A DNA stretch of 7,160 nt, taken from IMG/VR virus record IMGVR_UViG_2671180680_000012; one strand, 5' to 3'. This document shows, one piece after another, positions 1 through 7,111 of the stretch. This DNA comes from a virus. Taxonomy: Duplodnaviria; Heunggongvirae; Uroviricota; Caudoviricetes. A program made the translations under genes and the position numbers. The notes under the pieces were generated by a model that saw nothing but the letters and a program-made list of their open reading frames with translations, was not told the origin of the DNA and ran no database searches. How positions within the stretch are numbered: the first letter of the stretch is position 1; each line of letters starts with the position of its first letter.

Positions 1-2
1 AG

Positions 3-581
3 GGACAGCTGATAGAAACAGAAGCCACTGGAGCACCTCAAAAACACCATCATACACTAAATCAGTAAGTTGGCAGCATCACCGGGGGCGCAGACCCTGA
101 TTATGTTATCTGGGCGAAAGAAGTTCAGGGTATTAACCGTGCATGGACTTTCAGACACTGGAAAGGCACTGGAACGGTTGGCGTGATGGTGGCGACAAAC
201 GATCCGGAACGCCCGGCCCCGGATGAAAGCGTGATTAACGCAGTCAGGGACCACATCCTTCCTCTGGCACCTGTTGCCGGAAGCGGATTGTATGTATTCG
301 GTGCCACAGAAAAAGTCATCCCGATGACGATTGCATTATCGAAAGACACACCGCAGATCAGGACTGCAATAAAAGCAGAGCTGAATGCACTGATGTTACG
401 GGATGGTGTGCCAGAGGGGCGTATGTATCTGTCCAGAATCAGTGAGGCCATCAGTTTGTCTGCTGGTGAAGTGGCCCACCGGTTAATCGTCCCTTCATCG
501 GATATTGACCTGGGGGAGACCGAGCTTCCGGTGCTCGGCGAGATCACCTGGCAGGCTTATGACCCGGCAAGGAGTAAATAA
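3..581 (+). pseudogene. Baseplate assembly protein J-like (P2 gpJ / Mu gp47 family), 3' part; gene continues upstream of the window and is interrupted by in-frame TAA at 66-68
   Basis: Frame 0 is open 69-581 and encodes GADPDYVIWAKEVQGINRAW...LYVFGATEKVIPMTIAL..., resembling the C-terminal half of J-family baseplate proteins. There is no ATG/GTG/TTG between 69 and GTG 183, so the conserved segment 69-182 cannot be translated on its own. The same frame upstream (3-65) is also open and protein-like. Position immediately 5' of a gpI-like gene matches P2 J-I-H-G order. Confidence 0.55.
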
Positions 582-1171
582 TGGATTCGTTACAGGATGA
601 TTATACAAAGCTGCTGTACGGACTGATGCCGCCGGGGCCTGCATGGTCAGATACCGACGGTGTACTTGACGGTCTGGCACCATCGCTTGTGCGTGTTCAC
701 CAGCGGGCTGATGAACTGGTGATTGAAATCGATCCCGGTCAGTCCACAGAGCTGATTGAACGTTATGAAGAATTGTATGGTTTACCTGATTCCTGTTCCC
801 CTGTCGGAACCCAGACATTACGCCAGCGTCAGCAACGTCTTGAAGCAAAAGCCAATGTGGCTGGTGGCATAAATGAGCAGTTCTTCCTGGATCAGCTTGA
901 GGCGCTGGGATATACCGGCGTAACGATCGAACAGTTCCAGCACTTGGATGCAAGCCCCGATCCGGAATGGGGAGATCGCTGGCGTTATTTCTGGCGTGTG
1001 ACGTTGCCGATGGATGCCGGTGCTCAGTGGCAGACATGCACGGACGCCTGCAACACACCGATCCGGACGTGGGGGGATACGGTTGCGGAGTGCGTGATTA
1101 ATAAATTATGTCCGTCACACACCGTCGTTTTATTTTCCTATCCAGATGAGGATGAAGATGCACAGGATTGA
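581..1171 (+). CDS. Phage tail/baseplate protein, P2 gpI / Mu gp48 / YmfQ-like (DUF2313-type)
   Basis: 196-aa ORF. N-terminus MDSLQDDYTKLLYGLMPPGPAWS...ELIERYEELYGLPDSC matches the pattern I recall for YmfQ/DUF2313 tail proteins. SD AAGGAG at 569-574, 6 nt before ATG 581. Start overlaps the J stop as TAATG (579-583). Confidence 0.8.
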   Translation: MDSLQDDYTKLLYGLMPPGPAWSDTDGVLDGLAPSLVRVHQRADELVIEIDPGQSTELIERYEELYGLPDSCSPVGTQTLRQRQQRLEAKANVAGGINEQFFLDQLEALGYTGVTIEQFQHLDASPDPEWGDRWRYFWRVTLPMDAGAQWQTCTDACNTPIRTWGDTVAECVINKLCPSHTVVLFSYPDEDEDAQD

Positions 1172-2198
1172 TACGCTGACTGCGGTAAAAGATAAGTTTG
1201 GTCCGGGTAAGAACGGATTTACTGACGGAAATCTTCGCACAGGACGTCTTGCTACCTGGCTGAACAGTGCCATGTGGAATGCCATTCAGGAGGAAATCTG
1301 TGGTGTCATTGAGAAGGCCGGGATAGAACTGAATAAAGAAGAACACGACCAGCTATATAAGGCTATATTATTGCTGGTGGGCGGTGCAATTAACGAAGAG
1401 GCATTGCTGATAAAAAATAACCTTTCGGATGTGGAAGACAGGGATGAGGCTGTTGAAAACCTCGGATTAAAACCCACGGTGGATAAGGCAAAAAATGCCG
1501 TTCAGCGTGATGGCGACACCATGACCGGAGAGCTGAAAATCCGTGGTGTTAATGCGCTGAGGATTTTCAACGAAGCTTTTGGCCTGATTTTTCGTCGTTC
1601 GGAAGAGTGCCTGCACCTTATTCCCACCAGTGAAGGTCAGGGGGAAAATGGCGATATTGGTCCCCTGCGCCCGTTCACCATTAATCTGCGGACGGGTGAA
1701 ATATCCATGTCGCATAAAGTGTCTGTTGGCGGTGGTTCGCAGGTCAATGGTGCGCTGGGTATCGGCGTTCAGAACGCCCTGGGGGGGAATTCAATTGTTC
1801 TTGGTGATAATGACACCGGATTCAAACAGAATGGTGATGGCCTGCTGGATGTTTATGCCAATAGCGTGCATGTGTTGCGTTTTCAGAGTGGCAGTATCCA
1901 GAGTAATAAAGCTGTAAACGTTACAGGACGGGTAACACCGTCAGACTACGGAAACTTTGATGCCCGTTACCAGCAGCGAAATGGTGGCGTGCAGGATGTG
2001 CGGTATGGTTATGAAATGTATTACACCCCCGGCAGTAACACCGTTTCGTGGACATTTCGCTCACCTTCGGGACACGGGCTGTCAGGGATATCGATATCGG
2101 ATACCGGCCGTAACTCAGCGGATAACGTCAACGGCGTGTATTACCGACCGCTGCAAAAACTGATTAATGGCACCTGGTATAACGTAGCGAGTATTTAA
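1158..2198 (+). CDS. Tail fibre protein, chimeric: Mu S/e14 Stf-type N-terminal domain fused to a P2 gpH-type C-terminal receptor-binding region
   Basis: ORF open from 1146. Start ATG 1158 preferred because GAGG 1148-1151 lies 6 nt upstream; ATG 1146 and 1152 are alternatives. N-terminus has WLNSAMWNAIQEEICGVIEKAGIELNKEEHDQLYKAI. Downstream has NAVQRDGDTMTGEL, then NALGGNSIVLGDNDTGFKQNGDGLLDVYANS and terminal LINGTWYNVASI, which closely resemble what I recall of the P2 gpH C-terminus. Overlaps the upstream gene by 14 nt. Confidence 0.85.
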   Translation: MHRIDTLTAVKDKFGPGKNGFTDGNLRTGRLATWLNSAMWNAIQEEICGVIEKAGIELNKEEHDQLYKAILLLVGGAINEEALLIKNNLSDVEDRDEAVENLGLKPTVDKAKNAVQRDGDTMTGELKIRGVNALRIFNEAFGLIFRRSEECLHLIPTSEGQGENGDIGPLRPFTINLRTGEISMSHKVSVGGGSQVNGALGIGVQNALGGNSIVLGDNDTGFKQNGDGLLDVYANSVHVLRFQSGSIQSNKAVNVTGRVTPSDYGNFDARYQQRNGGVQDVRYGYEMYYTPGSNTVSWTFRSPSGHGLSGISISDTGRNSADNVNGVYYRPLQKLINGTWYNVASI

Positions 2199-2200
2199 CA

Positions 2201-2746
2201 ATGTTGCATTTAAAAAATATTACGGCAGGTAATCCGAAAACCGCGGAATAATATCAGCTGACAAAACAGTATGATGTCACCTGGCTTTTTTCGGAAGACG
2301 GCAAAAACTGGTATGAAGAACAGAAGAACTTTGCCAGTGACACCATAAAAATGGTTTACACCGGAGACGGGCGCGTGGTGTGGGTCGGTAAGGATGTGAC
2401 AGGCATTGAACCCCGTAACGCCAGTGTTATTGAAGTTCCTGATATTACCGCCAACCGCCGCATTACCGCGCCGGGTTACTGGTTTTACCGCAATGATGAA
2501 TTTGTCTTTGACTACAGACTCAAAGCGGAAGATGAGCGTGATGCCCTTCTGGCTCAGGTCAGTGCCCGGACAGGGGAATGGGAAGAAGACCTGCTGCTGG
2601 GGCTAATCAGCGACGAAGACCGGGAAAAACTGAAAGCGTACCGTATTTACGCGAAATCGCTGCAGGCGATGGATTTCAGCACCATCACTGATAAATCCTC
2701 ATATAACGCCATTGAATGGTCCGTCTCTCCGGAAGGTTCTTCCTGA
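2201..2746 (+). pseudogene. Tail fibre assembly protein (P2 gpG / Mu U type) interrupted by in-frame TAA at 2249-2251
   Basis: ATG 2201 lies 2 nt after the fibre stop. Translation gives MLHLKNITAGNPKTAE-stop-YQLTKQYDVTWLFSEDGKNWYEEQKNF..., matching the conserved N-terminus of P2 G/Mu U chaperones as I recall them. The same frame then runs open to TGA 2744-2746. The ORF track only recovers the restart fragment 2351-2746. Confidence 0.8.
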
Positions 2747-2769
2747 TTTAATTTATCGCGAGAAAAACT

Positions 2770-4038
2770 ATGTCTGTAGTGATATCAGGTGCGCTGACTG
2801 ATGGCGCAGGCATCCCCATGTCCGGATGCCAGATTATTCTGAAATCCCGTGTAAACACCTCAGAAGTGGTGATGCGTACCAGGGCTGATGTAGTGACCGG
2901 AAATAACGGTGAATATTCGTTTGAGGCACAGGTCGGAAAATATTGCGTGTATCTGAAACGGGACTGGCGCGACGAGTACTGTGTTGGCGACATTGCTGTA
3001 TACGACGACTCAAAGCCCGGCACGCTGAATGACTTTCTGATTGCTCCTGATGAGGGCGACCTGAAACCGGATGTCGTCAAACGCTTTGAGGAAATGGTGG
3101 CGCAGGCGCAGCAGAGCGCCGGGGCCGCAGCCGGAAACGCACAGCAGACGGCGCAGGATGTGGCGGCAGCCGCAGGTTATGCCCGCGCAGCAGAGCAGGC
3201 CAAAAATGACATTGATGCTGCGCTGACCGGCACTCTGAAAACGGCTAACCATCTGTCTGAAATCGCAGCAGCAGGCGAAAAGGCACAACAGAAGTCCCGG
3301 GATAATCTGGGGCTGAAAAGTGCGGCCACGATGGAAGCACAGAGCGACATTTACGACCGGACAAAAGGCCGTCTGGCGATACCCGGCGCATTCGGCTTTG
3401 GGTGTGCTTTTCTGCCTGAAGATGTTATCCGTTTTGACACTAAGAGTGATTTCCTGGCCTGGGTAAGGAATGCGCTGCCAGGTGAATATTCCGTTGCTGG
3501 CCCCTACGACATCATCATACCCGACACACGGTTTGAAGGGGTGCTCAGCATCCGGTGGACTGATGCACGCCCTGAGACAACAGAACCGAGGTACAGAGCC
3601 AAATCCCTTACTTTTTACGGCATTAACGGCCCCATTTATCACACCCGCTACTGCTACTGGCCCATATCCAGACTGACTGGCTGGGTGAAAATAAATATAA
3701 CCACAGAAGATATTATTTACAGAATCGTGGCGAGCTCTGTCTGCAACAGATGGGGAGACCCTGACATTGGCGGGCTGATTATTGCTGCGTACCAGGGAGA
3801 AGCTGACGGTGATAAAGTCATCAGACTTGTCAGGGGGCAGTCATACAGAGGCTCACGACTGGGACCGGTGGGGATTTCAGTGCCCAGTACTCCCACCGGA
3901 ACGTATATAGCATCCCCACAATTTTTCATTACGGGATGTTCAGAGCATTCATTACCGGGGTCATATAGCGCCCTGTCCGGGGTGCCGGATGCTCATGTCT
4001 CTGGCGCAATGCCCGGGCTTTTTATTCGCACATCGTGA
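2770..4038 (+). CDS. Side tail fibre protein with lambda Stf-type N-terminal domain (Phage_tail_N-like), Ala/Gln-rich stalk and an unrecognised C-terminal domain
   Basis: 422-aa ORF. N-terminus MSVVISGALTDGAGIPMSGCQIILKSRVNTSEVV...VYDDSKPGTLNDFL parallels the lambda Stf N-terminus as I recall it (MAVKISGVLKDGTGKPVQNCTIQLKA...VYEDSQPGTLNDFL). Followed by an AQAQQSAGAAAGNAQQTAQDVAAAAG low-complexity stalk. Weak SD GAGAAA before ATG 2770. Confidence 0.8.
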   Translation: MSVVISGALTDGAGIPMSGCQIILKSRVNTSEVVMRTRADVVTGNNGEYSFEAQVGKYCVYLKRDWRDEYCVGDIAVYDDSKPGTLNDFLIAPDEGDLKPDVVKRFEEMVAQAQQSAGAAAGNAQQTAQDVAAAAGYARAAEQAKNDIDAALTGTLKTANHLSEIAAAGEKAQQKSRDNLGLKSAATMEAQSDIYDRTKGRLAIPGAFGFGCAFLPEDVIRFDTKSDFLAWVRNALPGEYSVAGPYDIIIPDTRFEGVLSIRWTDARPETTEPRYRAKSLTFYGINGPIYHTRYCYWPISRLTGWVKINITTEDIIYRIVASSVCNRWGDPDIGGLIIAAYQGEADGDKVIRLVRGQSYRGSRLGPVGISVPSTPTGTYIASPQFFITGCSEHSLPGSYSALSGVPDAHVSGAMPGLFIRTS

Positions 4039-4048
4039 GGAATGCACC

Positions 4049-4876
4049 GTGGAAATTAAAAAAATCATTAATCCCCGTTATACCGAAAGTGGCGCAGTAG
4101 ACTGTGACGTTTTTTTTGACGACAGGGACCAGGCAGTCCCCTACACAGCCACCGCTGATGATGTCGCACCGACGGGTCAGCGAATCTGGCAGGAACTGCA
4201 AAGTGGCAAATGGGGTGAGATAGCCCCATTCACTGTGACACCAGAAATGCTGGAAGCGGCCAGAGAGGCCAGACGTCAGGAAATTGAAGCATGGCGCACA
4301 GAACAGGAGGCGAAGCCGTTCACGTTTGAATGGAACGGTCGTATCTGGAATGCTGGCCCCAACTCACTGGGCCGCCTGTCCCCGGTAGTCATGCTGGCAA
4401 AATCTGTCACAGCACAAACNNNNNNNNNNNNNNNNNNNNNNNNNNNNNNNNNNNNNNNNNNNNNNNNNNNNNNNNNNNNNNNNNNNNNNNNNNNNNNNNN
4501 NNNNNNNNNNNNNNNNNNNNNNNNNNNNNNNNNNNNNNNNNNNNNNNNNNNNNNNNNNNNNNNNNNNNNNNNNNNNNNNNNNNNNNNNNNNNNNNNNNNN
4601 NNNNNNNNNNNNNNNNNNNNNNNNNNNNNNNNNNNNNNNNNNNNNNNNNNNNNNNNNNNNNNNNNNNNNNNNNNNNNNNNNNNNNNNNNNNNNNNNNNNG
4701 ATGCCGATAATCAGCAGGTGAAACTGTCGATGCCGGAACTGGAAGAACTGGCGGCAGCAATGGTGCAGGCGCAGGTCGATCGCAACGATGAGATTTATCG
4801 CCGTCAGCGTGAAATGAAAGAGGAGCTGAGTGGTCTGGAGGATTTGGGAACAATTAGAGCGTTTGATGTTACGTAA
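4049..4876 (+). CDS. Putative tail fibre assembly/chaperone protein (assigned by position; interior masked by N-run 4420-4699)
   Basis: In-frame GTG 4049 with SD GAGG 4037-4040 eight nt upstream, directly after the Stf-like stop (TGA 4036-4038). The frame is continuous in register across the 280-nt N-run and ends at TAA 4874-4876, followed by a strong terminator. No recognised P2 G/Mu U N-terminal motif. The ORF-track start ATG 3989 would overlap the fibre gene by 50 nt and is less likely. Confidence 0.5.
   Translation: MEIKKIINPRYTESGAVDCDVFFDDRDQAVPYTATADDVAPTGQRIWQELQSGKWGEIAPFTVTPEMLEAAREARRQEIEAWRTEQEAKPFTFEWNGRIWNAGPNSLGRLSPVVMLAKSVTAQXXXXXXXXXXXXXXXXXXXXXXXXXXXXXXXXXXXXXXXXXXXXXXXXXXXXXXXXXXXXXXXXXXXXXXXXXXXXXXXXXXXXXXXXXXXXXXDADNQQVKLSMPELEELAAAMVQAQVDRNDEIYRRQREMKEELSGLEDLGTIRAFDVT
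4420..4699. other. Run of 280 ambiguous bases (masked sequence or assembly gap) inside the putative chaperone gene
   Basis: Contiguous n characters. Reading frame is in register on both sides, consistent with length-preserving masking. Confidence 0.99.
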
Positions 4877-4922
4877 TTGGTAAGCTGCATCGTGTTAAAT
4901 TGTTACCCTTATTTACAACTAG

Positions 4923-4956
4923 AAAAGCCTCTGACTTCATAATCAGAGGCTTTTTT
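4923..4956 (+). terminator. Rho-independent terminator closing the tail-fibre operon (potentially bidirectional)
   Basis: Perfect 12-bp stem AAAAGCCTCTGA (4923-4934) / TCAGAGGCTTTT (4943-4954), 8-nt loop CTTCATAA, T-run to 4956. Lies 47 nt after the stop at 4876. Confidence 0.85.
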
Positions 4957-4973
4957 GAAATGCACGTGCATTT

Positions 4974-5222
4974 NNNNNNNNNNNNNNNNNNNNNNNNNNN
5001 NNNNNNNNNNNNNNNNNNNNNNNNNNNNNNNNNNNNNNNNNNNNNNNNNNNNNNNNNNNNNNNNNNNNNNNNNNNNNNNNNNNNNNNNNNNNNNNNNNNN
5101 NNNNNNNNNNNNNNNNNNNNNNNNNNNNNNNNNNNNNNNNNNNNNNNNNNNNNNNNNNNNNNNNNNNNNNNNNNNNNNNNNNNNNNNNNNNNNNNNNNNN
5201 NNNNNNNNNNNNNNNNNNNNNN
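4974..5222. other. Run of 249 ambiguous bases covering the predicted 3' 135 nt of ssrA and about 114 nt of the prophage/ssrA junction
   Basis: Contiguous n characters. Visible ssrA sequence begins at 5223, corresponding to tmRNA nt 228. Confidence 0.99.
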
Positions 5223-5450
5223 CGCTTCAACCCCAGGCAGGGCTTCCACGCGATCTCTTTTGGGTTTGACCTCTCTTGATCCCCGTCCTAAGAGCGGAGG
5301 CTAGGGAGAGAGGGCTCTAAGCAGGTTATTAAGCTGCTAAAGCGTAGTTTTCGTCGTTTGCGACTATTTTTTGCGGCTTTTTACGAGGCCAACCGCCCCT
5401 CGGCATGCACCTTGGGTTTCGCAAATCCCGTCGAATCCAGAATCAGCCCC
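5088..5450 (-). ncRNA. ssrA: tmRNA (SsrA). Only 5223-5450 (tmRNA nt 1-228) is visible; the 3' end at about 5088 is inferred from the canonical 363-nt length and lies in the N-run
   Basis: Reverse complement of 5441-5450 is GGGGCTGATT, the mature tmRNA 5' end. Reverse complement of 5329-5361 is GCAAACGACGAAAACTACGCTTTAGCAGCTTAA, encoding the ANDENYALAA tag plus stop. The whole visible stretch matches the E. coli ssrA sequence as I recall it. smpB lies immediately upstream in the same orientation. Confidence 0.93.
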
Positions 5451-5473: not shown

Positions 5474-5664
5474 GATTTATGAGCGCCATGACCAGCCTCA
5501 ATGGCGTTATCGTTAAAGATTTAGCACCCATGTAGCCTGATTTTTATTCGATTAAGCAATGGGATGGCAACATTTGTGTCGGATGTGATAGCCAATAAGA
5601 TGTTCATTCGCGCCGCCGGAGAGGGAGGCGCGGTGAGGAACTGGTCAATAATTGGAGTGCAGGT

Positions 5665-7035: not shown

Positions 7036-7111
7036 CAGACAGAAAAAAGGTGCTCATTGAGCTAATGCCGATCAGTTAAGGATCAGTTGACCGATCCAGT
7101 GGCTGTGTAAG

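Follow-up and report, generated by a model that had tools for sequence, protein, structure and literature searches.

The stretch of DNA analysed here (the window) is 7,160 nt long and its coordinates count from its first letter. It opens with the terminal 83 nt of an IS1 element (1–83, minus strand), which splits a baseplate J (Mu gp47-like) gene. The IS1 element, with its InsA and InsB domains (PF03811 and PF03400), sits between N- and C-terminal Baseplate_J fragments in ten near-identical chromosomes. Homology to prophages free of this insertion begins at position 84, and the C-terminal 165 codons of the baseplate J gene (84–581, plus strand) are open from there to a stop codon at 579–581, covering positions 171–255 of the 255-position Baseplate_J profile. 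The uninterrupted gene is 1083 nt long in both FDAARGOS_944 (L001) and E. coli C311 (L003). The next gene is an intact Mu gp48/YmfQ-like baseplate gene encoding 196 aa (581–1171, plus strand; PF10076, E = 2e-25), which has the same length as in relatives and differs from FDAARGOS_944 at 2 nt. It is followed by a tail-fibre gene encoding 346 aa (1158–2198, plus strand), taken from ATG 1158, although the ORF also opens at ATG 1146. The encoded fibre is 90% identical to a C311 protein annotated as "phage tail protein" in a gapless alignment of 346/346 aa, and it corresponds to the "tail fiber protein" L54 of phiP27. Its length in the window (346/350 aa) matches that in C311, compared with 402 aa in FDAARGOS_944, from which it differs by an in-frame replacement (approximately 35 nt at window 1891–1926 versus approximately 203 nt at 5574–5777 of L001).

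Beyond the gene at 2201–2746, which is the subject of this analysis, lies a second tail-fibre gene (2770–4038, plus strand), intact and encoding 422 aa with a prophage tail fibre N-terminal domain (PF08400, E = 2e-63). In the collection searched, 723 blocks index the exact 422-aa protein, and 84 of them have contigs longer than 1 Mb. After it comes a DUF4376 gene (3989–4876, plus strand; PF14301), which is broken in the window by a 280-nt run of Ns (4420–4699) and encodes 207 aa in near-identical genomes (L014 and others). Its start as called in relatives overlaps the 3' end of the second fibre gene by 50 nt (3989–4038) in another frame, and a GTG at 4049, directly past the second fibre stop, opens the same DUF4376 frame. 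L022 and all other loci that match have just 16 nt (GCATATGGCGTGGGGT) in place of the 280 Ns. A second N-run (4974–5222, 249 nt) corresponds to 236 nt in near-identical genomes, comprising the 3' third of ssrA and the junction between prophage and chromosome. Either the lengths of the N-runs are arbitrary (masking or scaffold gaps) or the DUF4376 gene carries a 264-nt in-frame insertion.

A hairpin (GCCTCTGA / TCAGAGGC) followed by TTTTTT can be read directly from the sequence at 4927–4956 (plus strand). It was not flagged by our pattern scan, and it is probably an intrinsic terminator that closes the tail operon. The visible part of ssrA (tmRNA) lies at 5223–5450 on the minus strand (Rfam RF00023, 84.9 bits), and ARAGORN reports a tmRNA at the matching place in L022. 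The 3' end of ssrA, hidden under the second N-run, is the prophage attachment site. Homology to E. coli C311 ends at 7062, just past yfjF, and window 7063–7160 matches the end of an IS4 element. In related chromosomes an IS4 transposase gene comes next, followed mostly by raiA-pheA-tyrA-aroF and not by the bamE-recN of E. coli, which L020 retains; the order of these flanking genes suggests an IS4-mediated rearrangement beyond yfjF.

From ATG 2201 the gene between the two fibre genes reads MLHLKNITAGNPKTAE over codons 1–16 (2201–2248, plus strand), then TAA at 2249–2251 (codon 17), then 164 sense codons and a TGA at 2744–2746. This is the break that had been described in an earlier note made from the letters of the window, and its coordinates were exact. 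The native ATG lies 2 nt past the stop codon of the upstream fibre gene (TAA 2196–2198), and tight spacing of this kind is usual in late phage operons. The same ATG is the annotated start of an intact 546-nt gene in FDAARGOS_944 and in O121 strain 201805972 (L002). The ochre codon is the sole break in the 181-codon frame and limits translation from the native start to 16 codons. The rest of the gene (codons 18–181 and the TGA; 2252–2746, plus strand) is open and severed from that start; it holds a CTG at 2258, an ATG at 2351, which is the first canonical in-frame start past the TAA and would give 131 aa, and a GTG at 2375. The gene offers no uninterrupted coding sequence for a two-domain tail-fibre assembly (Tfa) protein, and the TAA at codon 17 makes the gene a pseudogene of the Tfa family and not a working member.

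Family membership was assessed using the 181-aa frame with codon 17 read as glutamine. This sequence matched the Pfam family Caudo_TAP (PF02413) with 87.7 bits against a cut-off of 22.1, residues 40–178 aligning to profile positions 2–131 of 131. The structure of Mu U (PDB 5YVQ_B) was matched with E = 8e-39 over residues 1–158, of which residues 1–100 align closely. In tblastn comparisons the sequence was 47% identical to Mu U/U' and 40% identical to its P2 counterpart, each over 98% of its length; the matches in P1, P7 and D6 were similar to those in Mu and P2, and all of them begin at residue 1. A profile score above the cut-off, similarity to characterised members and a position directly after a tail-fibre gene thus all accompany the assignment to PF02413. 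On these similarities, 2201–2746 is a Mu U/P2 G-type tail-fibre assembly gene, now a pseudogene, and the type assignment proposed in the earlier note is upheld by the profile, by the structural match and by the alignments to Mu, P1 and P2 from the first residue. An AlphaFold2 model built from a shallow alignment of 25 sequences had pLDDT values below 50 for residues 1–46, and the head was judged instead from its homology to 5YVQ and from a published summary of Mu Tfa.

Mu U (5YVQ chain B), Mu U', the U proteins of P1, P7 and D6, and P2 G share both family and architecture with the window gene. The head MxHLKNIxxxNPKTxEQYQLTK is common to Mu U and the window gene, including the glutamine at position 17 (KEQYQLTK in Mu). 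As in these Mu-type relatives, the gene lies directly after a tail-fibre gene; the order of fibre gene followed by Tfa gene is that of S-U in Mu and H-G in P2. For this reason we presume that the fibre encoded at 1158–2198 is the client of the Tfa protein, and an intact Tfa would, by analogy, have chaperoned its trimerisation. Unlike Mu, the window has a stop at codon 17 and belongs to a defective prophage. It has no invertible segment, and because both of its fibre pairs lie on the same strand there is no inverted second U'/S' pair.

The ancestral state of codon 17 is evident from relatives. CAA is found in FDAARGOS_944, O121 strain 201805972, E. coli C311 and phiP27, and also in nine S. boydii loci and nine IMG/VR viral contigs. 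FDAARGOS_944 is the nearest E. coli relative, being 99.4% identical over 2150–2800 with an intact 546-nt gene annotated. The in-frame stop in the window thus stands where all orthologues examined have a sense codon (CAA). Glutamine is invariant at this position in 25 cluster representatives (85–98% identity) and is present in Mu U. The position is variable in remote family members, so the statement applies to the subfamily and Mu U and not to all Tfa proteins. The earlier note had given glutamine for homologues at this position and had proposed that a single CAA to TAA transition would explain the lesion. Both points are borne out by the 25 representatives, Mu U and the S. boydii loci: the orthologous locus reads CAA in all relatives examined and the transition is the sole inactivating change.

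The TAA is carried on an identical 546-nt haplotype in 23 other assemblies, namely ten Logan contigs from different sequencing runs, ten complete chromosomes and three IMG/VR contigs. An ORF of 131 aa is called in 16 contigs, and the ten that were retrieved all read TAA. The ten complete chromosomes were found through the neighbouring fibre protein, and the Tfa gene is identical over 546 nt in each of them. The lesion is therefore real and inherited. A 39-mer spanning the stop, allowing both bases at the variable site, was absent from the species-representative genomes scanned. Sequences with CAA each differ from the TAA haplotype at three or more further sites, while the sequences with TAA are all one haplotype, which indicates a single mutational origin.

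The 131-aa ORF that starts at ATG 2351 is identical, letter for letter, to AAZ89357.1 of S. sonnei Ss046 (UniRef100_Q3YYQ5, with 14 Shigella entries), and on the basis of this exact match the source is an S. sonnei-type chromosome. The exact protein with glutamine restored at position 17, otherwise identical, occurs in 18 contigs labelled S. sonnei. Judged from the presence of this protein in S. sonnei-labelled contigs, the nonsense change is the most recent step on the haplotype.

The allele differs from that of FDAARGOS_944 at four positions: the nonsense change at codon 17, A161T, a synonymous change at Tyr-168, and P174S. Three of the four are non-synonymous, which is too few to test selection in either direction. 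Among 1629 possible single-base changes in the gene, 75 create a stop codon, so it is unremarkable, for a gene without selection, that one of the four changes separating it from its nearest intact relative is nonsense. The proline replaced in P174S (window 2720), part of a C-terminal W-P motif, shows no variation among 25 close homologues and hardly any among distant ones. The same replacement is found in the intact Gln-17 allele of S. sonnei and in a partial S. dysenteriae sequence. That an intact allele shares it may hint at a loosening of constraint that preceded the stop. The remark in the earlier note that nothing else in the gene had decayed thus holds for the frame, which is otherwise open, but not for this near-invariant proline.

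Translation of the sequence beyond the stop would require readthrough or a new start. The stop stands in the context UAA-U, in which E. coli terminates translation most efficiently. The predicted RNA fold of the 101 nt at 2240–2340 is unexceptional (z = -0.91; 29 of 200 shuffled sequences fold at least as well), and neither this fold nor the sequence context of TAA 2249 revealed a recoding signal. The stop lies on one haplotype only and is accompanied by neither a leaky context nor a stimulatory downstream structure. A pattern scan of 2000–4973 found no sigma-70-like promoter. No Shine-Dalgarno sequence precedes ATG 2351 (duplex -2.3 kcal/mol), and the corresponding Met-51 is not conserved, being isoleucine in the O121 relative and isoleucine or valine in other close relatives. 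The sole internal start with a usable Shine-Dalgarno sequence is GTG 2375, which is preceded by GGAG at a spacing of 8 nt and would give 123 aa, lacking 58 residues. Several genome records call a 162-aa product from CTG 2258, 7 nt past the stop. ATG 2351 had been named in the earlier note as the only in-frame restart; GTG 2375 and CTG 2258 are also used in genome records.

We searched 1.84 billion representative proteins for homologues and examined the starts of the best 150 matches, 104 of which reach the C-terminal region. The majority of these (85/104) are at least 160 aa long and all 85 have at least 40 residues before the position of Met-51. Nine others are 141–154 aa long with a different, shorter N-terminal domain, and the remaining ten are short fragments. 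None of the 104 begins at the Met-51 position with unrelated upstream sequence. Homologues that start naturally at Met 2351, which the earlier note had named as grounds for refutation, are therefore missing at full length from the best 150 matches.

Several other explanations of the stop codon were weighed against inactivation by a real nonsense mutation. A base-call or assembly error over a true CAA might be suspected given that the window contains N-runs, so that its source may be an imperfect assembly, and that 18 contigs labelled S. sonnei encode the exact Gln-17 protein. However, the T at 2249 recurs on the same 546 nt in the Logan, complete NCBI and IMG/VR assemblies described above; the error was rejected on the strength of these independent assemblies, and we give it a negligible probability. 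The assemblies likewise give no support to a C at 2249, the other ground for refutation named in the earlier note. Leaky or programmed readthrough yielding a little full-length chaperone is just as improbable. Only the undecayed state of the rest of the frame speaks for it, against which stand the UAA-U context, the ordinary structure downstream and the confinement of the stop to one haplotype, the codon being absent from all other homologues. We regard as very unlikely, though less so than readthrough, that an N-terminally truncated and partly functional protein is still made, from CTG 2258 (162 aa), ATG 2351 (131 aa) or GTG 2375 (123 aa). The frame beyond the stop has no further break, GTG 2375 has its GGAG, CTG 2258 is close behind the stop, annotators have called all three products, and the C-terminal helices that they would keep are the conserved trimerisation part of Tfa, according to a published summary of the Mu Tfa structure (PMC9608196). 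The same summary describes the N-terminal domain of Mu Tfa as binding the fibre and the C-terminal helices as trimerising, and a truncated product would on this account lack part of its client-binding domain. Every one of the three products falls short in this way. ATG 2351 has neither a ribosome-binding sequence nor a conserved methionine, and all 85 homologues of at least 160 aa among the best 150 matches keep their residues ahead of it. The 162-aa call from CTG is also made on S. boydii genes with an open 181-codon frame, and the operon sits in a prophage broken by insertion sequences. The suggestion in the earlier note of expression by readthrough or reinitiation therefore finds no support in the stop context, the RNA fold, the sequence before ATG 2351 or the conservation of Met-51, and we infer that the 164 codons after the stop are an untranslated fossil. 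A more speculative proposal, to which we attach only slight credence, is that the 123-aa fragment from GTG 2375, reduced to the conserved trimerisation helices and without a fibre-binding head, is made and could co-assemble with the Tfa of incoming Mu-, P2- or phiP27-like phages and poison it. If true, the decayed gene would defend against superinfection in a dominant-negative manner, which could explain why the rest of the frame has stayed open.

The cause of the relaxed selection can also be read in two ways. The earlier note had pointed to a complete second fibre/chaperone pair downstream (2770–4876), which would have made the first pair redundant. The second fibre (PF08400) and the DUF4376 gene are indeed present and intact. 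The redundancy itself does not hold up, because phiP27 (L54–L57) and E. coli C311 carry both pairs in the same four-gene order with an intact Tfa, and the annotated feature set is shared by the majority of the 40 E. coli records listed for this region. The two pairs also belong to different sequence families, which argues that they are partners in one tail and not duplicates or a backup, and a chaperone role for the DUF4376 protein is a guess from its position. Redundancy is thus an improbable explanation. A prophage already broken by IS1 explains the relaxed selection better. In the ten complete chromosomes the order runs from the tape-measure gene through IS1, the DNA circularisation gene, gpP-like, gp45 and gp46 genes, the N-terminal part of gp47 and a second IS1 to the C-terminal part of gp47, and from there through gp48, the first fibre, the interrupted Tfa gene, the second fibre, DUF4376, ssrA, smpB, ratA and yfjF to IS4. 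One of the two IS1 elements thus interrupts the baseplate J gene, and the other separates the tape-measure gene from the DNA circularisation gene. Without an intact baseplate J gene the prophage would be unable to build a tail, and the fibre chaperone would already have been without a job and free of selection.

Taken together, these observations are consistent with the following order of events. A phiP27-like prophage with a Mu-type tail integrated at ssrA in an S. sonnei-type chromosome, and the split of its baseplate J gene by IS1 would have freed the Tfa gene from selection. A C to T change turned the CAA of Gln-17 into TAA, so that translation from the native start now stops after 16 residues, and the mutation would have been fixed by drift within the general decay of Shigella genomes. 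We hold this account as a whole, a nonsense pseudogene of Tfa in an IS1-dead phiP27-like prophage at ssrA in an S. sonnei-type chromosome, to be very probably correct.

The closest deposited phage is phiP27, an Stx2e phage that is 91.6% identical in DNA sequence over window 84–3137 and whose gene order (L52–L57) agrees with that of the window from the baseplate genes up to the point where the phiP27 genome ends. Its L54–L57 encode a tail fibre, the tail fibre assembly protein L55, a tail fibre and L57; L55 is 76% identical to the product of the window gene and has glutamine at position 17. The genes of phiP27 are annotated as complete and the att site of the record lies elsewhere, whereas the copy in the window sits at ssrA, is split by IS1 and carries the nonsense codon. 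Past approximately window 3137 the two diverge in their distal fibre and DUF4376 genes. E. coli C311 has the same tail module, likewise at ssrA but free of IS insertions; its Tfa gene is intact and both pairs of fibre genes are present. In S. sonnei Ss046, the protein identical to the 131-aa ORF of the window is annotated as "putative tail fiber assembly protein p37" (AAZ89357.1), an annotation that shows the leftover ORF as a protein and leaves the upstream 16 codons and the stop unflagged.

Related modules are found in other surroundings. In FDAARGOS_944 (filed as E. coli; L001 8640–10281) and S. boydii (L029–L031), a module with CAA adjoins ipaH effector and methyltransferase genes. There the first fibre is split and the second fibre is truncated or absent from the gene calls, a distinct pattern of decay, so that separate Shigella lineages have accumulated different lesions. 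In a Logan contig (L004, ERR6005649) and an IMG/VR contig (L042), the TAA haplotype and the second fibre gene are joined to different DUF4376 3' ends, with 94% and 90% identity to window 4700–4877, and in the Logan contig the neighbour is an ipaH-type (NEL) gene instead of ssrA. The module may have a second location in the genome, or else these short assemblies run across a repeat. In two chromosomes (L015 and L019, approximately 11150–19269), another prophage with an integrase, an S24 repressor-like peptidase and other genes directly follows the DUF4376 gene in place of ssrA-smpB; this arrangement suggests tandem occupation of the ssrA attachment site.

The same haplotype was present in every examined assembly of the S. 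sonnei-type locus. A literature search on this S. sonnei locus found nothing specific to it. The DNA of the pseudogene has been deposited under three gene models (loci L014–L028): 162 aa from CTG 2258, 131 aa from ATG 2351 and 123 aa from GTG 2375. The 162-aa calls in S. boydii were considered as possible hidden cases of the TAA and this was rejected, the DNA reading CAA with the full 181-codon frame open. On these copies the CTG model looks like a propagated start-site error, and its use on open frames points to annotation practice and not to biology. At least 199 pseudogenes are present in each Shigella reference genome, and insertion sequences caused half of those in S. sonnei (Hawkey et al. 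2020, PMC7373316). The Tfa pseudogene resembles this pattern in its nonsense mutation and in the IS insertions in dispensable DNA, the affected gene being one of a prophage instead of a metabolic gene of the chromosome; nothing else sets it apart. The locus is thus one that was already deposited and is inconsistently annotated, and it is an ordinary product of Shigella genome decay. The biological weight of the finding is very small, as it adds one more fixed pseudogene to the well-documented decay of Shigella prophages. Its practical value lies in annotation, where the locus should be recorded as a pseudogene with an internal stop, and the C to T change at 2249 could mark a lineage if the rare intact allele is basal within S. 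sonnei.
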